Of a stretch of DNA of 64,000 bases, positions 1,946-58,898 are shown one piece after another (the first letter of the stretch is position 1; every line of letters begins with the position of its first letter). The notes beneath the pieces are model-generated. The model was given only the letters and a program-made list of their open reading frames with translations. It ran no database searches and was not told the DNA's origin. A program made the translations under genes and the position numbers. This DNA comes from Patescibacteria group bacterium (GTDB taxonomy: Bacteria > Patescibacteriota > Doudnabacteria > UBA920): positions 11,283 through 75,282 of the forward strand of contig WARV01000024.1 in the NCBI GenBank assembly GCA_013387205.1, read 5' to 3'.

Positions 1946-3469
1946 TTAAAAGCTATGGAGATTTTCTATCTTGGCTCCCAGCTTTTTCAGGCGGTTCACC
2001 AAGTCTTCGTAGCCGCGATTTATGGAATAGACATTGCGCAAAACTGACGTACCTTTGGCTGCCAGCATGGCAATTAAAATTATGGCTGCCGGCCGCAAAG
2101 CCGGAGGACAAATAATTTCTGCTGGTTTAAATTCGCTGGGGCCTTCCACAAAAACCCTGTGGGGATCGGCCAAAATAATATTGGCGCGAAGCTTGGTTAA
2201 TTCCATATAATAGATAGCCCGATTTTCATAAACCCAGTCATGGATTAAAGTGGTGCCCGTGGCTTTGGCGGCAATCGGCACGAAGAAGGGAAGGTTGTCT
2301 ATGTTCAAACCGGGGTAGGGCAGGGGATGGATTTTTTCCTCTAAGGCCAAAAGGCGCGATGGATAAGTTTTTATATCGGCCAAGTTTACGTGCCCGTTCA
2401 AGCCTTTGTATTTTTTCAAAATTTTATATTTAAAACCCATCTTTTCCAGTTTCAACAATTCCACTTCCAAAAAATATATCGGGCATCTTTCAATAGTAAT
2501 AGAAGAATCGGTAGTGGCGGCCAAAGACAAAAATAACATTGACTCAATCGGGTCTTCGCTCAAATAGTAACTGGTCGGATGGTTGATATCAGGCTTGCCG
2601 TACACAGTCAGTGTAGACGTGCCAATGCCTTCGATTTTTACGCCTAAGGCAGAAAGGAAATGGCACAAATCCTGTACCATGTAATTTGAAGAGGCAAACT
2701 TGATAACTGTCTTGCCGGGAATTTTACTGGCAGCCATAAGCGCGTTTTCCGTAACCGTATCGCCCATTTCATAAAGCGGGATTTCCGCAGCAGATAATTT
2801 TTCCACACTGACTTCATAATGGTCGTGGGTGGTGTTTATTTTAACTCCCAAATTTTCCAAAGCGAACAAGTGCGGACGCACGGTCCTGGCACCAAGTTTG
2901 CATCCGCCGGCCAAAGGCAGGGAAAAACGCTTAAATAAATGGATTAGCGGGCCAAGAAGCATGAGCACGCTCCTGGTCTTAACCGCTGCTTCAGCATCAA
3001 GCCTGCTTAAATCAAGTTTTTTTGGAGGATTCAACTCCAAATCCGGACCAACCCATTTTATGGCCACCCCTATACTGGTTAGCACTTCCACCAGGCGATG
3101 AACTTCTTCTATGCGAGGCACATTTTTTAAGGTGGTTTTTCCGGAATTAAGCAAGGAAGCGCAAAGTAAAGCCACAGCCGCGTTCTTGGATGTGTTAGTA
3201 GTGACTTTTCCGGACAATTTATGGCCGCCCTGAATTCTAAAGTTCACAGACTGGTCAGCCAAAGTGATAATTTCACGGTTTAAGACGCTGGAGATTTTAC
3301 TAAGCATCTCTGTGCTGAAGTTCTGCTGGCCTTTTTCCATCCTGGCCACTGCGCTTTGCGAAGTTTTCAAGGCTTTGGCGAATTCACCCTGGGTTAAGCC
3401 TTTTAACTCTCTTAACTCCGAAATGAATTTTCCTATTTTTTGCTGTTCTTGGATTGAATTATTTTTCAT
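1946..3469 (-). CDS. murA: UDP-N-acetylglucosamine 1-carboxyvinyltransferase (MurA) with an N-terminal XRE-type helix-turn-helix domain fused
   Basis: 507 aa. Residues 1-70 are a Cro/C1-type HTH (IGKFISELRELKGLTQGEFAKAL..SQSAVARMEKGQ). The rest is full-length MurA (FRIQGGHKLSGKVTTNTSKNAAVALL..). Confidence 0.85.
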   Translation of the reverse strand: MKNNSIQEQQKIGKFISELRELKGLTQGEFAKALKTSQSAVARMEKGQQNFSTEMLSKISSVLNREIITLADQSVNFRIQGGHKLSGKVTTNTSKNAAVALLCASLLNSGKTTLKNVPRIEEVHRLVEVLTSIGVAIKWVGPDLELNPPKKLDLSRLDAEAAVKTRSVLMLLGPLIHLFKRFSLPLAGGCKLGARTVRPHLFALENLGVKINTTHDHYEVSVEKLSAAEIPLYEMGDTVTENALMAASKIPGKTVIKFASSNYMVQDLCHFLSALGVKIEGIGTSTLTVYGKPDINHPTSYYLSEDPIESMLFLSLAATTDSSITIERCPIYFLEVELLKLEKMGFKYKILKKYKGLNGHVNLADIKTYPSRLLALEEKIHPLPYPGLNIDNLPFFVPIAAKATGTTLIHDWVYENRAIYYMELTKLRANIILADPHRVFVEGPSEFKPAEIICPPALRPAAIILIAMLAAKGTSVLRNVYSINRGYEDLVNRLKKLGAKIENLHSF

Positions 3470-13384: not shown

Positions 13385-13409
13385 CCGCCTTCGCATAAAG
13401 CTTCGGCGG
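13385..13409. repeat. Repeat family K hairpin (CCGCC-TTCGCATAAAGCTTC-GGCGG)
   Basis: Paralogs at 18133-18155, 19236-19270 (rc), 19745-19775, 54866-54885 (rc) and 54941-54965 (rc). Confidence 0.6.
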
Positions 13410-18120: not shown

Positions 18121-18300
18121 CTCGGGTCCCATCCTTCGCATAAAGCTACGGCGGGCACAGCAAGCCCGGGGTGGAAACCGAGGACACCATCCAGGAATTT
18201 CGAGTGTATCGGAGAAATATCCGGGATCCAGTACATATTCGCATTGTATAATTCAGCCACGAAGTGGCCCCTTCGAGGCGTACTTATCGGCGACGTTTCT
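18121..18300. repeat. Composite repeat block (family K hairpin, right 74-bp direct repeat at 18161-18234, family G module)
   Basis: CCTTCGCATAAAGCTACGGCGG, then the CAAGCCCGGGGTGGAAACC..CCGGGATCCAGTAC repeat, then CAGCCACGAAGTGGCCCCTTCGAGGCG. Confidence 0.7.
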
Positions 18301-18783: not shown

Positions 18784-18868
18784 ATTTTTGTATTCCCATT
18801 ATACCCCCATTCCCTCAGCTTTACAATCCCCTACAGATTTGGTATTCTAGGATGTTTAGGAGGAAAAA

Positions 18869-19138
18869 ATGGAAAGCAATGAAGAGCAGATTCTGCAAAG
18901 CTTACGGGAAAGGACCAAGGAAACACATGCTTCCCAGCGAGTCACTTTGCTCCTGGTCTATGGCCACAAAGTGAAAGGAGAACTGTATCATGTGGGCGAA
19001 AAAGACATCACCCTGCGTGTCACCCCGTGGTGGCGATCCCTGTTCGGGCTGGGTGCCATATTCTTCCACTGCCACCCGAGCAAGATTGTGGGCTATGCTG
19101 CCCAGTTCATCGACCGTAGCGGCTCTGTTCTCGACTGA
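18869..19138 (+). CDS. Hypothetical small protein
   Basis: 89 aa with a strong SD (AGGAGG, 7 nt upstream). Its GC content is higher than the flanks. Confidence 0.5.
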   Translation: MESNEEQILQSLRERTKETHASQRVTLLLVYGHKVKGELYHVGEKDITLRVTPWWRSLFGLGAIFFHCHPSKIVGYAAQFIDRSGSVLD

Positions 19139-19235
19139 CTACTGGTTATTAGCCTACGATTACCTTAACACGGCCCCCGCCGGAATTACCGGCGGTGGGC
19201 TTTTTCTTTTTGCCTTGTCACGCCGAAGCCTTGCC

Positions 19236-19272
19236 TTGCCCGCCATAGCTTTACGCGAAGGCTGGGGCGAAG
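19236..19272. repeat. Family K repeat (reverse orientation)
   Basis: CCGCCATAGCTTTACGCGAAGGCTGGGGCGAAGGCGG. Confidence 0.55.
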
Positions 19273-19349
19273 GCGGATGCTTTACAATTCCCTGCCCTTT
19301 TGTTATTCTAACCATCGCAATATGGTCTCAGACGAGAGGAGGAACATTA

Positions 19350-19595
19350 ATGGCAGGTTCCGTTATTTCTGCAGCCGTGCATTATGAATGCACAGATCCG
19401 AAAAAAGATAACTCTGGGTATCTAATCATGGTGCCGGTAGTTGAAGGCACCAATATCCCAGACGTCACCAAGACTGGCACAATTGTTGCAAAAAGAGAAT
19501 CCGGAGATATCACCGTAGAGGCAAGGATTCCAAACATCAATTACTGCCCGGAATGCGGTGCGCACATTCACGACGATCCGATACCGCGACGCTGA
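19350..19595 (+). CDS. Hypothetical small protein with C-terminal CPECG zinc-ribbon-like motif
   Basis: 81 aa. GAGGAGG SD 7 nt upstream of the ATG at 19350. Confidence 0.5.
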   Translation: MAGSVISAAVHYECTDPKKDNSGYLIMVPVVEGTNIPDVTKTGTIVAKRESGDITVEARIPNINYCPECGAHIHDDPIPRR

Positions 19596-19744
19596 ATTTC
19601 CTTTTGCCCTAACCGCCCAATCCCGACTTTTTGGGACAAGCGGTTCAGGGCTTTTCTTTTTGCTTGAATTACGTAATCTTTTTGTCATTGCGAGGAGACA
19701 AAGGGCTTTATCTTTGCCGACGAAGCAATCTTTTCATGATTAAG

Positions 19745-19915
19745 ATTGCTTTCACCTTCGCTAAAGCTACGGCGGACAAGTCGGCTGCACTCATAAGACA
19801 TCTAGCCAATTTTAAAGGGCCAACCGTTAGGTTGGCCCTTTCAACTTCAGCGATATATCCGCCACGAAGTGGCCCCTTTGGGGCGTTGCTATCCGCGAGT
19901 AATCCGCGGTACTAC
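19745..19915. repeat. Composite repeat block (family K plus family G modules) downstream of fusA
   Basis: CCTTCGCTAAAGCTACGGCGG ... CCGCCACGAAGTGGCCCCTTTGGGGCGTTGCTATCCGCGAGTAATCCGCGG. Confidence 0.65.
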
Positions 19916-26683: not shown

Positions 26684-28075
26684 TTGAAACAAAAAATGAG
26701 AGAAAAGATAAAAATATTATTTGCTAAAGCAAAAGAAAAAATTTTGGGGTTTTTAAAAAAATGTTTTAATTTTAAAACCTTACCCTGGATTTTAATAGGA
26801 TTGGTTTTGCTCGGAGCCGCTGGCGTTGGCGGATATTTTTTGTACCAAAAAAAATATCCCAAAAAAATCCAATTACAGGCTGTAAAAAACCAAAATATTT
26901 ATATGGCATTCCTGGATGAAATTTACGGCATAATCCAAACCAATTACTGGGAAAAAATTTCTGACGAACAATTGACCGAGCTTTATCGCCTGGCAGTGGA
27001 AAAAGTCAGCGGGAAACCTGCAACGCTTCCGGCAAAAAACCGCGAAGCTCTGGACAATTTGCTTTTAAGCAACATCAACTCACTGGAAAATAATGGCAAG
27101 AAAAAAGAATTCGCTGCCAATGTTGCAGACGTGGTGCTGGCAAATTTGCAACCCTTTGGCCGCAGCCGGCTTTATACCCAAAAACTCCAGCAGGATTTAA
27201 GCAACGCGGTAAATAATATAGATCCGACCGCAAACCTTTATGCCGACTTGGGGGTAAAAAAAGATTCCAAACCCGAAGAAATCAAACAAGCTTACGAGCA
27301 AAAAGCAAATGAACTTGCAAAAGATACGAGCGAGGGAGGAAAACAAAAACTGGCACAGGTCAACCGCGCGTACGAGGCTTTAAAAACTCCTGAACTGAAA
27401 AACCGCTATGACCAGACCGGGGCTGAACCAAGCGTTATTGGCGAGCGGCTTGGCACAAACATCGAGCATATTTGGATAAAGAGGTTCTCCCCGACAACCA
27501 TCCAGGACTTGGTGTCTGTAGCAGACGAAGCGGACAAGAATGGCGGCAAAGATTTAAATACTTTAATTTTAGACTTGCGCGGAAACATCGGCGGGGCTAT
27601 TGACCAACTCCCCTATTTTTTGGGGCCATTTGTCGGGCCGGACAGGGAAGCTTACCAGTATTACCACCAGGGAGAAAAATTACCGTTTCGAACTTTGGCA
27701 GGATGGCTGCCCAGCCTGGTCAGATATAAAAAAGTAGTAATTATGACGGACGAACGCTCGCAATCATCAGCAGAAGTAATGGCGGCATCTTTAAAGAAAT
27801 TTAATGTTGGGGTGCTGGTTGGAACCAAAACCAAAGGCTGGGGCACGATTGAAAGAGTGTTTGATATAAAGACGCAAATCGACCCGAATGAAATTTACGC
27901 CGCGTTTTTGGTACACACTATCACTTTGCGCGACGACGGCCAGCCCATTGAAGGCCGCGGCGTAGATCCGGCAATAGATATTACGGCCAAAGATTGGGGC
28001 AAACAGCTGGAAGATTACTTTAACTTCCCTCCCCTAATCCAGGCCGTACAGAAAGTTTGGAATGAAAAATATTAA
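26684..28075 (+). CDS. C-terminal processing (S41) peptidase with N-terminal TM anchor and an internal degenerate J-like domain
   Basis: 463 aa. LILDLRGNIGG is the S41 signature. Residues near 180-250 (LYADLGVKKDSKPEEIKQAYEQKANELAKD..RAYEALKTPELKNRYDQ) resemble a DnaJ J-domain lacking HPD. Confidence 0.75.
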   Translation: MKQKMREKIKILFAKAKEKILGFLKKCFNFKTLPWILIGLVLLGAAGVGGYFLYQKKYPKKIQLQAVKNQNIYMAFLDEIYGIIQTNYWEKISDEQLTELYRLAVEKVSGKPATLPAKNREALDNLLLSNINSLENNGKKKEFAANVADVVLANLQPFGRSRLYTQKLQQDLSNAVNNIDPTANLYADLGVKKDSKPEEIKQAYEQKANELAKDTSEGGKQKLAQVNRAYEALKTPELKNRYDQTGAEPSVIGERLGTNIEHIWIKRFSPTTIQDLVSVADEADKNGGKDLNTLILDLRGNIGGAIDQLPYFLGPFVGPDREAYQYYHQGEKLPFRTLAGWLPSLVRYKKVVIMTDERSQSSAEVMAASLKKFNVGVLVGTKTKGWGTIERVFDIKTQIDPNEIYAAFLVHTITLRDDGQPIEGRGVDPAIDITAKDWGKQLEDYFNFPPLIQAVQKVWNEKY

Positions 28076-38901: not shown

Positions 38902-41900
38902 TCAAATTACCAGGTTAATGAGTTTGTTTGGCACATAAATTACGCGTTTTATTTCACTTGTGCCGACTGCTTTTTTTACCTGCTCTACCACCAACGCCTC
39001 TGCCTTGACTTCGTCCTGGCTGCTATCCCGCTTAATGGACAGCTTAGCTTTAACTTTTCCGTTGACCTGTACAACAACATCAACAGTCTGGTCTATCACC
39101 AAAGCAGGATTATATTTTGGCCATTCGTGCTCTTGCAAAGATTTTTTATTGCCGAATAAAGAATACAGTTCTTCGCAAAAATGCGGGGCAAACGGGTACA
39201 TTAAAGCCAAAAAAGTTTTTAAAGAATCTAAAGTTATAAAGTCCTGCTTTATTTCATTATGGAATTCCATAAAGCTGGAAACAGCGGTGTTAAACCTCAT
39301 ATTTTCCAAATCTTCCGTAACCTTTTTAATTAGCTTATGCAAAGCTTTTTCTACTTTTTCCGTATCTTTAACTCCCTGATTATTTTTCGCATGAGGAGAA
39401 CTAATAACTTCATTCGCCCAAACCCAAACCCTGTCTAAAAACCTTCTCACGCCCAAAATCCCCTTATCGTTCCATGATACGGTCATTTCGTGCGGCCCCA
39501 AAAAAGGCTCGTACATCCTTAGAGTATCAGCTCCGAACTTTTTAACCACTTCGTTGGGATTAACCACATTTCCGCGGCTTTTAGACATCTTCTCGCCGTC
39601 CGCGGCTAAAATGATTCCATGAGGCTTTCTTAATACATAAGGTTCTTTGGTAGTAACCAACCCCTGGTCGTATAAGAACAGATTCCAAAAACGGGAGTAC
39701 AGCAAATGCAAAGTCGTATGTTCCATTCCTCCAAAGTAAACATCCACCGGGATCCAATACTTCTGCTTCTTTTTGTCAGAAAAAACTTTTTTATCTTTAG
39801 GGTCAATATACCTTAACCAATACCAAGAAGATCCTGCCCATTGCGGCATAGTATTGGTCTCGCGCTTGGCCGGCCCTTTGCATTTTGGACATTTTACATT
39901 TACCCAAGTCTCAATTGCGGCCAAAGGAGACTCCCCTGTCCCAGTCGGTTCGTAATTCTCAACCTCCGGCAATTTAACCGGCAAATCTTTTTCCGGCACC
40001 GCAACGATGCCGCACTTTTCGCAGTGAATTATAGGAATTGGCTCGCCCCAATATCTTTGCCTGCTAAAAACCCAATCTCGCAGCTTGTACTGCACGGTTA
40101 ATTTTCCGAACTCTTTTGCCATTTTTTCAATCGCTTGTTCTGAACCTAATCCGGAAAATTTTCCGGAGTTTATAAGCGTACCGTATTCCACGGAAGCCTT
40201 AGCTAATACCGGGGATGCAATGGCGCTGTCGATTATTTCATCCATTAATTCCGGAAGTTCTTTTAATCCCGACGATGTACCAAAATGGCCCTTGTTTTTC
40301 AAGACAACTGTATTCGCTTGCATATCTCTTTCGTATAAATCCTTTACCGACAAAGGTATATGTTCGTCGTTATCAGAAAACAAAGCAGTCGTTCCGGCTA
40401 CTAAATCCCGGATTTTTTCCCAATCCAAAGAAGCCTGCGAAACTTTCTGGATAGCTTCTGCTGGAGAATCGGCATGGTTGTCGCGATACCATTCCCAATC
40501 CATATCCGGATGGGTTGGTGCAACTAAAAATAAATGCCTAATCTTTTTGTTGAATTTCATCAGAAACTGCAAAGCGGTAGGCGCTCCCAAACTATACCCT
40601 ATAACAAGGGAGTTCTCATTTATCTCATCTTTATACTTTTCCAAAACCTTCAGTCTTTTATTTAAATCCGGGGTTCCCTGGTCATTCATATCAGGAGATA
40701 TCACTTTATATCCCAAGGCAGATAATTTTTCAGAAAGCCATGGAAACCAATTATTTTTGCCGTTACCGTTAGTCCCATGCAGCAACAAGACCGTACCGAC
40801 ATATTGCGGACGGACCACCTGGGTTATGGGCAAATTAAATTTTTGGGCAAACTCGAAATCGCGCTCGTCGTGTGCCGGCACAGCCATAATCGCGCCCGTG
40901 CCATAACCCCACAAAACGTAATCCGCAACCCATACCGGAATTTCTTCCTTCGTCGCGGGGTTAATTGCTTTTATACCTTTTAGTTCAACGCCGGTCTTTT
41001 CTTTTTCCAAAGACGTCCTTTGTGTTTCCGTTTCGCTCTTTACATCCTCGATATACTTTCTGACTTCCCCATAATTCTTAATTCTTGATTCTAAATTCTG
41101 CACCAACGGATGTTCAGGCGCCACAACCATATAAGTCGCGCCAAAAATAGTATCCGGGCGGGTAGTAAAGACTTTAATCTTCATGGCGTCATCCTGAGTC
41201 CCGGATGCATCTGAGGGACGAAGGATCTCTTTATTTGACTGAGGGTGAGATTCTTCGCTCGGCTGCACTCGCTCAGAATGACGCCGAGAGGATAATATCA
41301 CTTCGCCTTTTGCACTCCTCACAATGACACCGAAATCTATTTCCGCGCCAACGCTTTTTCCAATCCAGTTTTCCTGCTGCAGCTTAACAGCCTCCGGCCA
41401 CTCCGGCAGATTTTTTAACCCTTCCAAAAGCTTTTCGGCGTAAGCCGTAATTTTCAAATACCACTGCCTTAACTCTTTTTTTACAACAACAGTTCCGCAC
41501 CTGTCGCATTTGCCGTCAATCACTTCTTCGTTAGCCAGCCCGGTTTTATCTTTAGGGCACCAGTTTATAAGCCCGGTAGCTTCGTAAGCCAAGCCTGCTT
41601 CAAAAAACTTCAAAAAGATCCACTGCGTCCATTTATAATAGTCAGGATCCGTGGTGTTTACTTCCCTGCTCCAATCGAAACTAGTTCCCCAGGATTCAAG
41701 CTGGGCTTTGGCATTTTTGATATTTTTTGCCGTGGAAATGCTCGGATGGATATGGTGCTTTATTGCAAAATTTTCCGCAGGCAAACCAAAAGCATCCCAA
41801 CCGATTGGGTATAATACTTCATGGCCTTTCATGCGTAAGAAGCGGCTGTAAATATCCCCGGCAATATAAGGGCGCAAGTGTCCCATGTGCAAACCTTCGC

Positions 41901-42033
41901 CGGAAGGGTAAGGAAATTCCACCAGCACATATTTTTTCGGATTTTTTGAAAAATCTTTAGCGACAAAAGTTTTTTTCTGCTGCCAATATTTCTGCCACTT
42001 CTTTTCAATTTGTAATGGGTTATATTTCTTCAT
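38902..42033 (-). CDS. leuS: Leucine--tRNA ligase carrying two in-frame insertions (an RPE-like palindromic insert and an RBBP9/YdeN-like alpha/beta-hydrolase domain)
   Basis: HMGH and KMSKS class I motifs, a CP1 editing domain, and the anticodon-binding C-terminus. The ORF is 1062 aa from a TTG at 42090; I placed the start at the ATG at 42033 (1043 aa). Confidence 0.95.
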   Translation of the reverse strand: MKKYNPLQIEKKWQKYWQQKKTFVAKDFSKNPKKYVLVEFPYPSGEGLHMGHLRPYIAGDIYSRFLRMKGHEVLYPIGWDAFGLPAENFAIKHHIHPSISTAKNIKNAKAQLESWGTSFDWSREVNTTDPDYYKWTQWIFLKFFEAGLAYEATGLINWCPKDKTGLANEEVIDGKCDRCGTVVVKKELRQWYLKITAYAEKLLEGLKNLPEWPEAVKLQQENWIGKSVGAEIDFGVIVRSAKGEVILSSRRHSERVQPSEESHPQSNKEILRPSDASGTQDDAMKIKVFTTRPDTIFGATYMVVAPEHPLVQNLESRIKNYGEVRKYIEDVKSETETQRTSLEKEKTGVELKGIKAINPATKEEIPVWVADYVLWGYGTGAIMAVPAHDERDFEFAQKFNLPITQVVRPQYVGTVLLLHGTNGNGKNNWFPWLSEKLSALGYKVISPDMNDQGTPDLNKRLKVLEKYKDEINENSLVIGYSLGAPTALQFLMKFNKKIRHLFLVAPTHPDMDWEWYRDNHADSPAEAIQKVSQASLDWEKIRDLVAGTTALFSDNDEHIPLSVKDLYERDMQANTVVLKNKGHFGTSSGLKELPELMDEIIDSAIASPVLAKASVEYGTLINSGKFSGLGSEQAIEKMAKEFGKLTVQYKLRDWVFSRQRYWGEPIPIIHCEKCGIVAVPEKDLPVKLPEVENYEPTGTGESPLAAIETWVNVKCPKCKGPAKRETNTMPQWAGSSWYWLRYIDPKDKKVFSDKKKQKYWIPVDVYFGGMEHTTLHLLYSRFWNLFLYDQGLVTTKEPYVLRKPHGIILAADGEKMSKSRGNVVNPNEVVKKFGADTLRMYEPFLGPHEMTVSWNDKGILGVRRFLDRVWVWANEVISSPHAKNNQGVKDTEKVEKALHKLIKKVTEDLENMRFNTAVSSFMEFHNEIKQDFITLDSLKTFLALMYPFAPHFCEELYSLFGNKKSLQEHEWPKYNPALVIDQTVDVVVQVNGKVKAKLSIKRDSSQDEVKAEALVVEQVKKAVGTSEIKRVIYVPNKLINLVI
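40216..40809 (-). other. Alpha/beta-hydrolase (Ser_hydrolase/RBBP9/YdeN-like) domain inserted in the LeuRS leucyl-specific domain
   Basis: Residues near 428-625: VLLLHGTNGNGKNNW (HG oxyanion), VIGYSLGA (GxSxG nucleophile elbow), FSDNDEHIP (acid), KGHF (His). Flanked by canonical LeuRS ..FNLPITQVV and GTLINSGKFSGL. Confidence 0.75.
41181..41325. mobile_element. RPE-like palindromic element inserted in frame in leuS
   Basis: GGCGTCATCCTGAGTCCCGGATGCATCTGAGGGACGAAGGATCTC ... GATTCTTCGCTCGGCTGCACTCGCTCAGAATGACGCC. It encodes the low-complexity segment IVRSAKGEVILSSRRHSERVQPSEESHPQSNKEILRPSDASGTQDDA, between the conserved IDFGV and KIKVFTTRPDT. Confidence 0.75.
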
Positions 42034-42086
42034 AATAGTATATTCATTATTTCCTCTCCCTTTAGGGAGAGGGTGGGGTGAGGGGG

Positions 42087-42452
42087 TCAATTTTTCAAAA
42101 ATTGATAAATTCTATTTAAAACCCCTTCTAAATTTTCATCTAAGTCATTATCCCAAAATCTTAAAACAATATATCCTTGATCTCTCAAAAGTTTATCTCT
42201 TAATGAATCGGTAATTTTTTTCTGAAGATGATGACTACCATCTAATTCAATGATTAATCTTTTTTTGATACAAATAAAATCAACTATAAAATTTCCAATC
42301 GGATACTGCCTTCTAAATTTAAAATCTTTAAACCTTCTATGTCGCAGAAGATACCATAATTTTTGTTCCCAAGGAGTTTGATTTATCCTTAACTTCCTGG
42401 CTGCTTGTATCAAATTTTGGTTTTCAATCCCCCTCATCCGTCCTCCGGCCAC
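42087..42452 (-). CDS. DUF559 (endonuclease-domain, Vsr-like fold) protein
   Basis: 121 aa, ..NQTPWEQKLWYLLRHRR..FKFRRQYPIGNFIVDFIC....IIELDGSHH....D..RD..L...GY.VLRFWDNDL. Flanked by CTCCCTttaGGGAGAG (42055-42070) and CTCCCTcaGGGAGAAGG (42455-42475) hairpins. Confidence 0.8.
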   Translation of the reverse strand: MAGGRMRGIENQNLIQAARKLRINQTPWEQKLWYLLRHRRFKDFKFRRQYPIGNFIVDFICIKKRLIIELDGSHHLQKKITDSLRDKLLRDQGYIVLRFWDNDLDENLEGVLNRIYQFLKN

Positions 42453-53513: not shown

Positions 53514-54827
53514 CTATTGATTAGTATAATCTTTATAGTTTTTCACCATCTCATCAAAATACTCGTAAGTTATTGCGTTGCGGATTTTATCCATTAAGTT
53601 CAAATAAAACCTCAAATTGTGCATGCTGGCCAAACGGATAGCTAAGGGTTCGCCTACCGCAAACAAGTGGCGGAGATAAGCTTTGGTATGGTTCAAGCAA
53701 AGGTAGCAGTTGCAGGTGTTGTCCACCGGCGTAAAGTCTTCTTTGTATTTCTCCAGGCGGATATCGATTGTTTGATAACCCTCGACGGTAGAAGCATCTT
53801 GTAGCGGGCGGATACTATCCGCCCCTACGGCCGGTTTTTCGATATTCCTTGCCGCAATATACAATCTTCCATGCCTCGCTTCCCTTGTCGGGATAACGCA
53901 ATCAAAAGTGTCACAGCCCCGCGCCACGCCTTGGACGATATCAAACGGCGTTCCTACCCCGAGCAAATGCTTAGGCGCAGTAACCGGCAGAAAAGGCACG
54001 GCGTATTCTACGGCTTTCATCATTTCCTCGTGCGGTTCGCCCACGGCCACGCCGCCAATCGCAAACCCTTCAAAGCCAAAACCGGCCATGTCCAAAGCGG
54101 ACTGCTTGCGCAAATCTTCAAAGCTTGCGCCCTGGACAATCCCCCACAACTTTTGGCCGGGGTTGACCGGATCGCCGCTTTGCGTAATTCTTTGGTGTTC
54201 TTTAATGGCGCGCTCAGCCCATCTTTTAGTCAGTTCAATGGATTCCTTGCTGCGTTTGTGCTCAAACGGATAACCCGGGAAGTCATCTAATATCAAAGCA
54301 ATGTCGCTGCCTAAATTGGCCTGAATGTCCACGGATTTTTCCGGAGACAACACTTCCTGCTTGCCGTCCAAATCGAACTGGAACAACACCCCGGCTTCCA
54401 TCACCTTGCGGAACTTGGCCAAAGAAAAAACCTGGAAGCCGCCGCTGTCCGTAAAAATCGGTCCCTTCCAGTTCATGAATTTATGCAAGCCTCCTGCTTT
54501 ATAAATAAGCCCGTCGCCCGGCCTCTGCCACAAATGGTAAGTGTTGGCCAAAACCATGTCCGCGCCCCAAAACTTTAACTCTTCAGATGTGACAGATTTC
54601 ACTGTGCCGCGGGTGCCGATTGGTAAAAACGCCGGGGTCTTTACATCCCCGTGCGCGGTATGGATTACGCCTGTGCGAGCTTTGGATGACTTGCCCCGCA
54701 CTAATTCTTGATGTCCCTTTGATGGCTTTTCTTTTTCACCACGCTTAAAATCATCTTCATCAGACTGTTGATAATCATGAAAATTAGTGCGGGGTGAATC
54801 AGGTTTTAAAATATCGAAATAAGACAT
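53514..54827 (-). CDS. tgt: Queuine tRNA-ribosyltransferase (tRNA-guanine transglycosylase) with about 50-aa N-terminal extension
   Basis: 437 aa with zinc site CxCxxC..H (CNCYLCLNHTKAYLRH). Confidence 0.9.
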   Translation of the reverse strand: MSYFDILKPDSPRTNFHDYQQSDEDDFKRGEKEKPSKGHQELVRGKSSKARTGVIHTAHGDVKTPAFLPIGTRGTVKSVTSEELKFWGADMVLANTYHLWQRPGDGLIYKAGGLHKFMNWKGPIFTDSGGFQVFSLAKFRKVMEAGVLFQFDLDGKQEVLSPEKSVDIQANLGSDIALILDDFPGYPFEHKRSKESIELTKRWAERAIKEHQRITQSGDPVNPGQKLWGIVQGASFEDLRKQSALDMAGFGFEGFAIGGVAVGEPHEEMMKAVEYAVPFLPVTAPKHLLGVGTPFDIVQGVARGCDTFDCVIPTREARHGRLYIAARNIEKPAVGADSIRPLQDASTVEGYQTIDIRLEKYKEDFTPVDNTCNCYLCLNHTKAYLRHLFAVGEPLAIRLASMHNLRFYLNLMDKIRNAITYEYFDEMVKNYKDYTNQ

Positions 54828-54829
54828 AA

Positions 54830-54990
54830 ATGCAGTGGCGTCATTCCGCTTGTCCTCCGTAGCTTTAGCGAAGGTGGAAGCGAGCGAGGAATCTCTTTGT
54901 TTAAAATATCCAGATCCTTCACTGTGTTCAGAGCCTGCCCCGGACTTGCTGTGCCCGCCGTAGCTTTATGCGAAGGCTGGGATCCGGGGA
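54830..54990. repeat. Composite repeat block (family K hairpins in reverse orientation plus a partial 74-bp repeat)
   Basis: CCTCCGTAGCTTTAGCGAAGGTGG ... GCCCGCCGTAGCTTTATGCGAAGGCTGGGATCCGGGGATGAAGCCCGTG. Confidence 0.65.
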
Positions 54991-55052
54991 TGAAGCCCGT
55001 GAACCATTATACCAAAAAAGCTCCGGCTTGTCACCGGAGCTGAAATCTTTGA

Positions 55053-55490
55053 TTAGTTTTTATTTTGCATTAAATCCTGAAAACTTGGTTGCTGAGGAAT
55101 ATCTAAATGATAACTAATACCTAAAAAATTATTAATCTCACCTGAAATTTTACTTTGTATCACAACCCTATCCTTTGAATTCACCGAACTATTGCGATAC
55201 TGGCTGCTATGGATAAAATTTATCCTTTGGGATTTTGGTACAATAGTTCCTTTCTCTAAAATTTCCTCAGGCCTTCCTGTGATAATATCTTTATGGAACG
55301 AAGTTTTGCCTATTATAATATCACCGTCACTGGTTACTATAAAAGCCCTGGTATGGTTATGTTTTAATGCATTGGTAATTTCTTCACGATTTGAATATTC
55401 GCAATTTACCAAAAACCCAAAAGGAATTTCGATATTATTATGCCACGGTTCAAACGATGAACTTTCAGCTCTAAAACCTTCCTGATACAT
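55053..55490 (-). CDS. Hypothetical protein (AT-rich)
   Basis: 146 aa from the first in-frame ATG that clears the upstream gene. Confidence 0.35.
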   Translation of the reverse strand: MYQEGFRAESSSFEPWHNNIEIPFGFLVNCEYSNREEITNALKHNHTRAFIVTSDGDIIIGKTSFHKDIITGRPEEILEKGTIVPKSQRINFIHSSQYRNSSVNSKDRVVIQSKISGEINNFLGISYHLDIPQQPSFQDLMQNKN

Positions 55491-55587
55491 AAGATATAAG
55501 TTATTTTCCTTAAGTATATCACAAATTTTCAAATTTAAAACAAACGGCTGCGGATCTTTTTTGAGATCCGCAGCCGCACTTGAAACG

Positions 55588-56331
55588 TTACTTCTTTTTG
55601 AGTTTGGGCAGCAACACCACTGCAAGCAGCCCTGCTCCAGCCAGGAATGTTGTTCCTGGTTCGGGCGCTTCCGAGGTGCCGGGGTCATCGCCGGGTATCC
55701 TTGGCTCGCTGAGCGCAGTGCCATACTGGAATTGCACGCCGCTGATGTTGCTGGCGTTAAATCCTTCAGGCAGCCCGCTTAGAGTGAAAATCACGCTGTT
55801 TTTGATTAGCGCGTTATCGCCAGTCACGGGCGAGTTGCCGGTTGTGGCATTATCGCCTTTTGACGTTATGCCATACTGCAGGCCGTCAGGGTTTGTTGGC
55901 CCTTGAAGGTTATTGCCGGGAAACAGGTTCCCGGGACCGAACAATCCAAGGCCGGAGCTGGAAATACCGCACGGTCCCGGCGCAGATGCGCCAAGGCCGC
56001 AGGCAAAGCCCCACTCGCCTCCGACAGATCCGCCCGGATCAGTACCTCCGTATACCACGGAACTGCCCGGCGACAAAACCGCGGAAAGAGGCATGAGCCC
56101 CGAAGGGACACCGGAAAAAAATACCGCAGTCAGTACGTCCGCAGGCACCATCACGTCGTCCATGCTTGTATTGGTGAGTTTTACCACCAAATTCGTGCCC
56201 TGGACTTCAAACACCGCTTCTGCGGCCAAATCGCCGCTGTGGCCGGTGTACATAATCGTGCCGGCAAAAGCCGAAGCCGAAATACCCAACAACAAAGCAA
56301 CTGTAAGCAACACTGCTCTTACAAACTTCAT
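55588..56331 (-). CDS. PEP-CTERM sorting-domain secreted protein (Gly/Ser/Pro-rich)
   Basis: 247 aa. Signal peptide, then C-terminal PEPGTTFLAGAGLLAVVLLPKLKKK (PEP motif, TM, basic tail). GC is about 58% against about 40% in the flanks. Confidence 0.75.
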   Translation of the reverse strand: MKFVRAVLLTVALLLGISASAFAGTIMYTGHSGDLAAEAVFEVQGTNLVVKLTNTSMDDVMVPADVLTAVFFSGVPSGLMPLSAVLSPGSSVVYGGTDPGGSVGGEWGFACGLGASAPGPCGISSSGLGLFGPGNLFPGNNLQGPTNPDGLQYGITSKGDNATTGNSPVTGDNALIKNSVIFTLSGLPEGFNASNISGVQFQYGTALSEPRIPGDDPGTSEAPEPGTTFLAGAGLLAVVLLPKLKKK

Positions 56332-56431
56332 TCTTTAACTTCCTCCGCTAGATTGGAATTTGCTTCGAGACAAAAAACTATCCGAAACTAAGCCAGTTTA
56401 CCATAAAATCTAGGTTTTGTCCACCATAACA

Positions 56432-56461
56432 AAAACGTCCCGATGGAAACGGGACGTTTTA
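56432..56461. terminator. Bidirectional terminator between pnp and the PEP-CTERM gene
   Basis: AAAAACGTCCCG-atggaa-ACGGGACGTTTTAT. Confidence 0.75.
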
Positions 56462-56470
56462 TAATATCTA

Positions 56471-58780
56471 TTATCTATCGAAGTTTCTTCTTGGCGGGCG
56501 GGAACCTCCGTGGCCTCCCCTGCCTCCGCCATGGCCGCCGCGATGGGAACCTCCGCCCATGCGCGGGCCGCGGTATTCATCGTATTCGGCATGAGCACCT
56601 GCCCCAGCTCCTCTGCTTCGCTCGGAACCTAAGCCAGCCGGCGCGGCTTCGGCAAAAGGCTTGTGGGTCAAGTTAATCCTTCCCTGCTCGTCAATCTCGC
56701 TGACCTGGACTTTTAACTTATCGCCAATCTTAACCACGTCTTCCACGCGGTTCACTCTGTAATTGGCCAATTGCGAAATATGCACCAGGCCTTCCTTGCC
56801 TGGCAAAACTTCCACGAACGCGCCAAAGTCCATCAGCCTGGTCACCTTGCCTTCATAAATTTCGCCCGGCTCGACTTCTTTAACAATGTTCTGAATCCAT
56901 TCCACCGCTTTCTTGGCGCTTTCTGCGTCGGTCGATGTCACCATAACCAAACCATCATCTTCAATATCTATTTTAACGCCCGGACAGTTGGCAATAATTT
57001 CGTTAATAGTCTTGCCGCCGCTTCCGATAACTTCGCGGATCTTGTCCGGCTTAATCTTAAAGCTGGTAATGCGCGGGGCATACGGGGAAAGATCGGGACG
57101 CGGCGCAGGTAAAGCTTCTTTCATCTTGGATATAATGTGGATACGCGCCGGCTTGGCTTGGGCCAAAGCTTTAGCCAAAATTTCCGGAGTCAATCCTTTA
57201 ACTTTGATATCCAATTGCAAAGCAGTTACGCCTTCTTCGCTTCCTGTTACTTTAAAGTCCATGTGGCCGTTAAAATCTTCTATTCCGGCAATGTCAGTTA
57301 ACACTTTAAAGTGCTCGGGATTGCTTTCGTCCATAACAAGCCCCATGGCACAGCCGCCGATAATGTGCTTAATAGGCACGCCGGCATCCATAAGTGCAAG
57401 TGTCGACCCGCAAGTAGAAGCCATAGAAGTTGATCCATTGCTGGACATTATTTCAGAAACCAAACGCATGGTATAAGGGAATTCTTCCTGGGCAGGAAGC
57501 GTAACTTCTACAGCGCGTTCGGCTAATGCGCCGTGGCCGATTTCGCGGCGGCCAGGGCCGCGGATTGGAGCGACTTCGCCTACGGAATAACCTGGAAAAT
57601 TGTAATGGTGGATATATCTCTTGGCGCGACCCTCTATCGGATCTTCCATTCCGTCCAAAGTCTGCTCATCGCCCTTGCTGCCCAAAGTGATGGTTGTCAA
57701 AGCCTGGGTCTCGCCTCTTGTAAACAGCGCGCTGCCATGGGTTCTGGGCAAAACGCCGACTTCGCAGGTTATGGGGCGAGTTTCATCTAATTTCCTGCCG
57801 TCCACGCGGCGCTCGTGCTCTAAAATCTGCTTCTGCTGGAATTTTTTCAGAATTTTATCAATGCATTTATCCACTTCTTTTTCAATATTCACACCTTCCA
57901 GTTCTCCGAGTTCAGATGCCACTTTTTCCAAAATTTGTTTGGAAATATTATCGATATTTTCTTCGCGCTGCTCTTTACTCTTTACATAAACAGCCGGCTC
58001 AATAACACCGGAAGTCAGCAAGCTGCTGACTTTGGCAAAAACCTGTTCGTTGGGTTTTATAATGACCGGTTCAACTTTTGCCGTGCCTATTTCTTTGCTG
58101 AAATCTTCCTGGCATTTGACCAGCGCGCCCAAAAACGGCTGCGCGAATTTTATAGCTTCCACAATTTCTTCTTCGCTGACCAAATTGGCGCCGGCTTCCA
58201 CCATTATAATATGCTCGCCGGTTCCGCAGACAATCAAATCCATGCTGCTTTTTTCCTGCTGCTCGTGAGTCGGGTTTATTACGTATTGGCCGTCAATTTT
58301 TCCCACGCGGCATCCGGCAACCGGGCCGTCGTAAGGGATTTTGCTTATGGCCAAAGCCATGCTGGCAGCATTGACCGCCACAATATCAGGTTCGTTTTCA
58401 CCGTCAACGGATAAAACCGTGGCAATTACTTGCACGTCATTTCTCATTCCTTCGGGGAACATGGGCCTAAGGGTCCTATCTATAACCCTACCTTTTAAAA
58501 TGGCTCCATCAGTGGCACGGCCTTCCCTTTTGACCCAGCGGCTGCCCTTTATTTTGCCGGCAGCGTATAATCTTTCCTCGTAATCTACTAAGAGCGGAAA
58601 AAAGTCCACGCCTTCGCGCGGGGTTTTTCCCATTACCACAGTGGCTAACACCACGGTATCGCCCAAGCGGGCAACCACCGCGGCATCGGCCTGTTTGGCA
58701 ATTTTTCCTGTTTCAAATACAAAATCCTTCTCGCCAACCTTGCACGAGACTTTCTTGGACACTATTTGGTTATTCTCCAT
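56471..58780 (-). CDS. pnp: Polyribonucleotide nucleotidyltransferase (PNPase) with C-terminal RGG/Gly-His-rich tail
   Basis: 769 aa from the ATG at 58780 (AAGGA SD), with two PH domains, KH and S1. Tail: ..GAGAGAHAEYDEYRGPRMGGGSHRGGHGGGRGGHGGSRPPRRNFDR. Confidence 0.95.
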   Translation of the reverse strand: MENNQIVSKKVSCKVGEKDFVFETGKIAKQADAAVVARLGDTVVLATVVMGKTPREGVDFFPLLVDYEERLYAAGKIKGSRWVKREGRATDGAILKGRVIDRTLRPMFPEGMRNDVQVIATVLSVDGENEPDIVAVNAASMALAISKIPYDGPVAGCRVGKIDGQYVINPTHEQQEKSSMDLIVCGTGEHIIMVEAGANLVSEEEIVEAIKFAQPFLGALVKCQEDFSKEIGTAKVEPVIIKPNEQVFAKVSSLLTSGVIEPAVYVKSKEQREENIDNISKQILEKVASELGELEGVNIEKEVDKCIDKILKKFQQKQILEHERRVDGRKLDETRPITCEVGVLPRTHGSALFTRGETQALTTITLGSKGDEQTLDGMEDPIEGRAKRYIHHYNFPGYSVGEVAPIRGPGRREIGHGALAERAVEVTLPAQEEFPYTMRLVSEIMSSNGSTSMASTCGSTLALMDAGVPIKHIIGGCAMGLVMDESNPEHFKVLTDIAGIEDFNGHMDFKVTGSEEGVTALQLDIKVKGLTPEILAKALAQAKPARIHIISKMKEALPAPRPDLSPYAPRITSFKIKPDKIREVIGSGGKTINEIIANCPGVKIDIEDDGLVMVTSTDAESAKKAVEWIQNIVKEVEPGEIYEGKVTRLMDFGAFVEVLPGKEGLVHISQLANYRVNRVEDVVKIGDKLKVQVSEIDEQGRINLTHKPFAEAAPAGLGSERSRGAGAGAHAEYDEYRGPRMGGGSHRGGHGGGRGGHGGSRPPRRNFDR

Positions 58781-58898
58781 AATTATCCTTTGCCCTTGTT
58801 TTAAACAAGGGCACATGAAATGATTTGCGCGTTGACGATGACTTGGTTTAAGTCCTCGCTGTACCCGCAAACCATTTCTTAATTATTTTTAAAAATTT

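Follow-up and report, generated by a model that had tools for sequence, protein, structure and literature searches.

The PEP-CTERM/exosortase sorting system has so far been treated as a hallmark of outer-membrane bacteria: its proteins were found only in bacteria with both an inner and an outer membrane and with exopolysaccharide genes, usually in many copies per genome (median 8) (PMC1569441). For bacteria of the candidate phyla radiation (CPR), or Patescibacteria, the outer membrane has been proposed to be absent (10.1101/2025.01.22.634366), and a literature search found no papers linking exosortases or PEP-CTERM proteins with Patescibacteria. Here we describe a gene for a surface protein of the XDD4 family, ending in a PEP-CTERM-type tail, in a 64-kb stretch of the Patescibacteria contig WARV01000024.1 (the whole of this stretch is henceforth referred to as the window). 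Our preferred reading, to which we give a probability of roughly 55%, is that a foreign XDD4 gene occupies a variable slot between the core genes pnp and tgt, and that its product is used as an uncleaved, membrane-anchored ectodomain. The setting known for PEP-CTERM proteins (outer membrane, exopolysaccharide genes, multiple copies) is not the one seen here, where the host is one of the Patescibacteria and the window holds a single PEP-type tail and no exosortase. The gene itself is ordinary; its unexpected CPR host is the main reason for interest.

Judged by the genes around the slot, the host is a Doudnabacteria-like member of the Patescibacteria. The closest relatives of its tgt gene are 77–83% identical, and those that carry a name are labeled either "Patescibacteria group bacterium" or "Candidatus Doudnabacteria bacterium". 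Patescibacteria assemblies also share with the window the succession of rpsO, response regulator, pnp, slot, tgt, aminoacyl-tRNA synthetase, M24 peptidase and M16 peptidase.

At 55588–56331 on the reverse strand we recovered exactly the 247-aa open reading frame (ORF) that a sequence-only reading of this DNA had claimed, and the gene is genuine and intact. Its product matches the model NF045504 ("XDD4 family exosortase-dependent surface protein") at 225.9 bits (cutoff 40), with residues 15–209 covering positions 2–202 of the 202 in the profile, i.e. it is a full-length family member. In an alignment with 41 homologues (42 sequences with this protein counted in, which give 31 invariant and 35 nearly invariant columns) all 31 invariant positions are kept, the deviations at conserved positions being A108G and Y109F, both within the GGEWAY motif. 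A pair of cysteines (C112/C121) is present here and missing from the family consensus. The N-terminus (MKFVRAVLLTVALLLGISASAFA, followed by GT) has, as read by eye, the basic n-region, hydrophobic core and A-x-A cleavage site of a Sec-type signal peptide, as had been claimed, and AlphaFold2 places a helix over residues 2–17. The model built on the 42-sequence alignment (mean predicted local distance difference test score, pLDDT, 87.5; predicted template modeling score, pTM, 0.80) consists of this N-terminal helix, a beta-sandwich and a C-terminal helix (225–245). The body had been described as Gly/Ser/Pro-rich and repetitive. The first holds (G 15.8%, S 9.3%, P 7.7%), the second does not, the gene being free of tandem repeats and the protein of internal ones in our searches, with an end-to-end match to the XDD4 profile. 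A Foldseek comparison of the model with the PDB gave no significant match and no function from the fold; a literature search on the family returned no paper mentioning XDD4. The protein adds a new member, from an unexpected host, to a known family of more than 900 sequences that is functionally uncharacterised.

The tail (APEPGTTFLAGAGLLAVVLLPKLKKK) has the three expected parts, a PEP motif, a hydrophobic helix (predicted by AlphaFold2 at residues 225–245) and a basic KLKKK end at the very end of the protein. These parts stand as first described, but the label "canonical" does not. Against TIGR02595, the profile on which that label had been staked, the tail scores 14.7, which is 1.3 bits short of the cutoff of 16, with only positions 1–18 of 24 matched, and against PF07589 it reaches 16.9 with a cutoff of 20.7. 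The low score is not a mere weakness of a short model, because the tails of nine of the ten nearest homologues pass TIGR02595 at 21–34 bits (these tails comprised the last 34 residues, which were exact, and a few approximate residues in front, and the matches fell within the exact part). The LPXTG anchor model TIGR01167 was not among the matches to the tail. Given the homology of the domain and the PEP-CTERM tails of relatives that align to it at the same position, the sequence is still best described as a degenerate PEP-CTERM tail, not a canonical one. Its basic end is all lysine, where arginine predominates in the listed homologues. An all-lysine, degenerate tail fits relaxed selection on recognition by an exosortase with the anchoring properties kept.

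To place the gene within its family, we considered 185,579 species-representative genomes, in which 269 stretches held XDD4 relatives, and looked at the best 80 of these by name. They belong to Planctomycetota, Hydrogenedentota, Acidobacteriota, Nitrospirota, Proteobacteria, Verrucomicrobia and Fimbriimonadaceae, along with three metagenome-assembled genomes (MAGs) without a named phylum; most of these phyla are diderm, and no Patescibacteria label occurs among the best 80 of 269. The nearest homologue, from a Hydrogenedentes MAG, is only 58% identical, with none closer among 5.8 billion proteins, and the 90%-identity cluster of the gene has one member on one contig. JGI metagenome contigs contained neither closer relatives nor an independent assembly of the junction. 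A horizontal gain of the gene from outside the Patescibacteria is therefore well supported, as the sequence-only reading had supposed for a surface protein with a PEP-CTERM-type signal: the best relatives come from other phyla, the tails of the homologues align as PEP-CTERM tails, and the slot is empty in a related genome (see below). A diderm is the most likely donor, and the genomes that carry the nearest known relatives have ~53–68% GC. A phylogeny, the check that had been suggested for this origin, was computed by neighbor joining (NJ) and came out star-like, with a bootstrap of at most 19 of 200 for any sister group. A phage vector was also considered and dropped, since IMG/VR viral contigs hold no XDD4 gene.

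The place of insertion could be delimited by comparison with five related loci (L001, L003, L084, L085 and L086) that share the order pnp, slot, tgt. In L086 the pnp–tgt gap is only 213 bp long and has no ORF, i.e. it is an empty site. The others hold one small ORF (L001), a different one (L003), five ORFs (L084) or two (L085), which are unrelated to each other and to the XDD4 gene. The pnp–tgt interval is a hypervariable intergenic slot. In the window it measures 1,643 bp, of which only the pnp 3' end, positions 55003–55033 and the copies of a dispersed repeat match the relatives. Homology stops at 56465–56471 on the pnp side, while 55003–55033 is homologous to L003 5884–5914, upstream of the tgt gene of that locus. 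What lies between, 55034–56464 (~1.4 kb), has no match in the five relatives and is unique to this host. The limits of the foreign segment are thus the pnp terminator (~56464) and the tgt terminator/promoter (~55034), and not the AT-rich ORF and repeat block that had been taken as the island boundary. No integrase, transposase, tRNA or flanking direct repeats were found within this segment or at its edges.

The repeat block is native. It belongs to the 5' leader of tgt and consists of two copies of a repeat resembling repetitive extragenic palindromes (REP-like). Further copies occur in the window at 13387–13409, 18127–18171, 19237–19266 and 19748–19780, and others at unrelated intergenic sites of L001, L003, L084 and L086, with hairpins predicted at -18 to -25 kcal/mol. 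It is a clade-wide dispersed host repeat and not a marker of the island. A GC-rich intergenic stretch upstream of fusA (18800–19900) contains several REP-like repeats along with terminator-like hairpins and small ORFs; a 201-aa ORF there (18990–19595) has a higher GC content at second than at third codon positions (0.56 and 0.50) and is probably no real gene.

Inside the slot, the XDD4 gene appears to come with signals of its own (Table 1). A promoter-like site, a leader of ~55 nt with a Shine-Dalgarno sequence and a terminator together predict a self-contained transcription unit with host-style signals, so that the gene is apparently expressible in this host. By eye, no promoter of the sigma-54 type, which drives some PEP-CTERM genes, was seen upstream of it.

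The second cargo of the slot is an AT-rich ORFan, whose only hit among the 5.8 billion proteins is itself (P0241) and for which no family was found in Pfam, NCBIfam or PHROG. Its single-sequence AlphaFold2 model is unusable (pLDDT 37). P0241 is annotated at the source with 190 aa; we consider the 145-aa version (start at 55490) more plausible, because the longer one would have its start within the XDD4 gene, near the 3' end, and run across the terminator hairpin of that gene. The GC content of the ORFan (33%) deviates downwards as much as that of the XDD4 gene does upwards, with the second-lowest GC residual at third codon positions of 50 ORFs, and the two probably arrived separately.

Table 1. 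Features of the pnp–tgt slot and its borders, in window coordinates.
Feature	Position	Strand	Evidence or detail
pnp (polynucleotide phosphorylase), conserved upstream neighbor, left slot edge	56471..58870	-	NF008805, 952.9 bits
Stop codon of pnp	56473-56471	-	
Intrinsic-terminator-like hairpin and T-run downstream of pnp	56431..56460	-	stem 56451-56436, then TTTTTGTTAT
Sigma-70-like promoter of the XDD4 gene (TGGACA, 17 nt, TG-TAAACT)	56395..56423	-	9/12 match, TG before -10; consensus match only
Shine-Dalgarno GGAGGA, 9 nt before the ATG of the XDD4 gene	56341..56346	-	read from sequence
XDD4-family surface protein gene, 247 aa and stop	55588..56331	-	ORF and NF045504 match
Signal peptide, residues 1-23 (MKFVRAVLLTVALLLGISASAFA), cleavage predicted after AFA	56263..56331	-	by eye, -3/-1 rule
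XDD4 domain, residues 15-209, beta-sandwich and Gly-rich loops	55705..56289	-	
Degenerate PEP-CTERM tail, residues 222-247 (PEPGTTFLAGAGLLAVVLLPKLKKK)	55591..55668	-	PF07589, TIGR02595, alignment, predicted helix
Strong terminator hairpin directly after the XDD4 stop, 14-bp stem, 9 G-C pairs	55544..55577	-	inverted repeat, 100% complementarity
AT-rich ORFan, second slot cargo, 145 aa	55053..55490	-	32.6% GC, third-position GC 0.27
Terminator hairpin (55041-55019) with tgt promoter, right slot edge	55003..55041	-	
Native tgt promoter (GTGACA, 17 nt, TG-TATAAT), overlapping the terminator	55034-55006	-	11/12 match
Two copies of REP-like dispersed host repeat, native tgt 5' leader	54836..54992	.	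core CCGCCGTAGCTTTA[T]GCGAAGGC
tgt (tRNA-guanine transglycosylase), conserved downstream neighbor	53514..54827	-	TIGR00430, 444.8 bits

Both neighbors of the slot have terminal extensions of their own. At its 3' end (56471–56600) pnp encodes a Gly/Arg/His-rich C-terminal extension that ends in RPPRRNFDR and looks like a clade-specific, RGG-like tail of this RNA-degrading enzyme; the motif is also present in L001 (5400–5490) and L086 (4700–4790), and L003 ends in PRRNYDR. At the 5' end of tgt (54693–54827) there is a charged N-terminal extension of ~45 residues, the profile of the enzyme starting only at residue 46–49; close relatives range from 384 to 476 aa.

The GC content of the gene, given at first as about 58% in a genome of about 40%, is 56.2%, compared with 42.8% for the window and an ORF mean of 43.7% (standard deviation 5.1), and is the highest of the 54 ORFs tabulated. 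It is not strong evidence by itself: a protein of this composition would have 52.8% GC under host codon usage, so most of the excess comes from its amino acids. At third codon positions (GC3) the gene reaches 0.60–0.62, an excess of +0.08, which is as large as in the ribosomal-protein and elongation factor G (EF-G) genes and takes tenth place among 50 ORFs. Across the family, GC at first and second positions is high and roughly constant and GC3 tracks the host. Where an XDD4 gene is resident in a low-GC genome, its GC3 is 0.25–0.41, and only through the contrast with such genes does the compositional argument gain force. The five nearest homologues that were checked have a GC3 of 0.52–0.68 in surrounding DNA of 53–60% GC, and the value found here fits a gene not fully adapted to its host. 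The idea that the amino-acid set imposes a floor of 53–56% GC on the family was ruled out by XDD4 genes of 41–50% GC in low-GC metagenome contigs.

The absence of an exosortase from the window, as first claimed, was confirmed: none was present among the profile matches, and a six-frame search with a hidden Markov model (HMM) built from three XrtA-like exosortases that adjoin XDD4 genes elsewhere gave a best E-value of 0.3. The six multi-pass membrane ORFs of the window (UptA-like, a 149-aa ORF, S2P-like, UppP, one of the major facilitator superfamily and AI-2E) are not exosortases. The same HMM found nothing credible in ~54 kb of related Patescibacteria (the five loci) plus two groundwater contigs described below (L089 and L091), ~70 kb in total. 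In our proposal the XDD4 protein would be exported by Sec and its signal peptide cut after AFA, leaving the Ig-like beta-sandwich, as modeled, outside the cytoplasmic membrane. Because the lineage is thought to lack an outer membrane and probably lacks an exosortase, the PEP/hydrophobic/KLKKK tail would most likely be neither cleaved nor transferred. It would instead serve as a plain C-terminal membrane anchor and hold the domain at the cell surface, where it may help in adhering to a partner cell or to its polysaccharide matrix.

Several observations count against this proposal. With the same HMM, an exosortase was found within 6–10 kb at only 4 of 160 XDD4 loci elsewhere, so that its absence from the window is weak evidence, and the search covers 64 kb of a genome that in this host group is typically ~1 Mb in size. 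The PEP motif, being intact, could still be recognised, and at ~13–16 residues the hydrophobic core is so short that stable anchoring without processing is not assured. As regards the foreign origin, no donor can be named because the tree is star-like, and the GC3 of the gene lies within the range of the host ribosomal-protein and EF-G genes. Codon likelihood, to which the sequence-only reading had looked along with GC3, does not separate host from donor (-1.840, compared with -1.82 to -1.86 log2 per codon). Finally, this is one gene of a functionally uncharacterised family, whose use in the host is only inferred: a lead and not a result.

The alternative that survives best is canonical processing, in which an exosortase or archaeosortase-family enzyme encoded elsewhere in the genome, possibly co-acquired, would cleave the tail at the PEP motif and transfer the protein to a surface acceptor. 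We consider this unlikely, even though the tripartite tail is intact, the family is defined as exosortase-dependent and XDD4 genes so rarely adjoin an exosortase that 64 kb without one proves little. PEP-CTERM proteins and exosortases have been described only in bacteria with an outer membrane (PMC1569441), which the host lineage is proposed to lack, and no paper was found that links exosortases with Patescibacteria. Genomes with the system carry a median of 8 PEP-CTERM genes (PMC1569441), to be compared with the one tail in 64 kb. Moreover, this tail fails a threshold that nine of the ten nearest homologues pass, and no exosortase was found either in the ~70 kb of related and groundwater sequence.

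Somewhat less probable still is that the gene is a transient, functionless passenger, a recent arrival in a slot of fast turnover, and will decay with no benefit to the host. Its uniqueness (a cluster of one member on one contig), the degenerate tail, a slot content that changes in every related genome examined and a GC3 not ameliorated in comparison with the XDD4 genes resident in low-GC genomes all point that way. Set against this, the frame is intact, the profile is covered in full and every family-invariant residue is kept, and the gene is preceded by a promoter-like site of host type and a good Shine-Dalgarno sequence and followed by a strong terminator. The all-lysine end, where homologues mostly have arginine, also suggests time spent under the mutational pressure of a low-GC host with the charge kept.

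That a diderm fragment was joined into a Patescibacteria contig, by chimeric assembly or contamination, seems very improbable. The sharp step from 56% GC to an adjoining ORF of 33%, in a metagenome-assembled source with a single contig on record, would be compatible with it. A chimera, though, needs two exact breakpoints within 1.6 kb, in one intergenic region and with conserved gene order on both sides, around a gene whose promoter and terminator sequences on either side are AT-rich and host-like. Relatives carry other accessory genes in the same slot, and a similar GC-rich XDD4 spike is found independently in two low-GC groundwater contigs (L089, L091). Vertical inheritance of a native gene, GC-rich merely because its protein is rich in Gly, Ala and Pro, draws on the expected 52.8% GC, the ribosomal-level GC3 excess and a codon likelihood as good under the host model as under donor models, but is largely refuted by the lack of the gene from the slot in five related genomes, the absence of a close homologue among 5.8 billion proteins and of Patescibacteria among the best 80 of 269 relatives, and the low GC3 of resident XDD4 genes in low-GC genomes.

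The two groundwater contigs offer a parallel case. There the XDD4 gene (L089 1615–2412, L091 1419–2018) again forms a GC spike, with a GC content of 0.60–0.62 and a GC3 of 0.66–0.72 between flanks of ~45.5% GC, and, going by their names, the contigs come from a 0.1-µm groundwater filter fraction. The L089 gene adjoins an archaeal/SipW-type signal peptidase I, a SipW-cognate TasA-like protein and a matrixin-like protease. The combination of a SipW-type peptidase with a TasA-like protein is typical of monoderms and archaea. Since the L089/L091 gene is not sister to that of the window in the NJ tree, it would represent an independent event. It is tempting to extend the uncleaved-anchor reading and to suppose that ultra-small bacteria of groundwater, probably monoderms, take up PEP-CTERM-type surface proteins time and again from the diderms on or among which they live. 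Without an exosortase, they would use these as adhesins tethered to the membrane, able to recognise the polysaccharide matrix of a partner or to merge with it, the pnp–tgt slot being one site where such host-interaction genes are swapped. We regard this broader scenario as improbable, and as more than pure speculation only because of the independent GC-rich gene in L089/L091 and the degenerate tail in the window. A separate contig (L097 768–5030, 41% GC) provides an example of an XDD4 gene resident in a low-GC diderm: it encodes two PEP-CTERM proteins, one of them XDD4 (GC3 0.32), next to a PrsR-type sigma-54-dependent response regulator.

If the tail is a plain anchor, a sorting signal has been re-used for membrane anchoring after transfer into another type of envelope; if it is processed after all, an exosortase-type pathway has gone unrecognised in some CPR bacteria. 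Both readings would bear on how CPR epibionts build the surface by which they attach to a partner, which is poorly understood. The locus is also a clean example of a gene gained from outside the phylum at a definable hotspot of a streamlined genome.

Other features of the window were noted in passing. An ORF resembling DUF559 endonucleases (42087–42452 on the reverse strand; PF04480, 136 bits; 30% GC, GC3 0.23) overlaps the start of the large ORF downstream of it at 38902–42090 and is probably a mobile selfish element, as a DUF559 ORF is present at a different site in L086 (7782–8138). Two genes encode unusual fusions, one of an N-terminal HTH_3 domain (XRE-type) with an enzyme of the EPSP-synthase/MurA family (1946–3469, reverse strand) and one of a DnaJ J-domain with an S41 (C-terminal processing) peptidase (26684–28075, forward strand).

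Among known systems, the slot can be compared with genomic islets between core genes, with which it shares conserved flanks (pnp and tgt) and a content that differs from relative to relative and is missing in one, and from which it differs by having no integrase, transposase, tRNA or flanking direct repeats. As in the PEP-CTERM/exosortase (EpsH/XrtA) system, a tripartite C-terminal signal follows an N-terminal signal peptide in a protein with little similarity to characterised ones. Here, however, the 64 kb contain one copy and neither an exosortase nor regulators of the PrsK/PrsR type, the promoter resembles the sigma-70 consensus and the host is proposed to be a monoderm. The LPXTG/sortase proteins of monoderms provide a functional analogy only: the XDD4 protein has neither the LPXTG motif nor sequence homology to them and the similarity in fold is generic, but the layout of signal peptide, Ig-like ectodomain and C-terminal motif, transmembrane segment and basic tail is alike. 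With respect to the XDD4 family (NF045504), apart from the tail and the cysteine pair, the difference lies in the host, a member of the Patescibacteria, a group not represented among the best 80 named relatives; in its signal peptide, ~200-aa domain and C-terminal sorting tail the protein has the architecture of the family, with 50–58% identity to members from Hydrogenedentota, Planctomycetota and Acidobacteriota.

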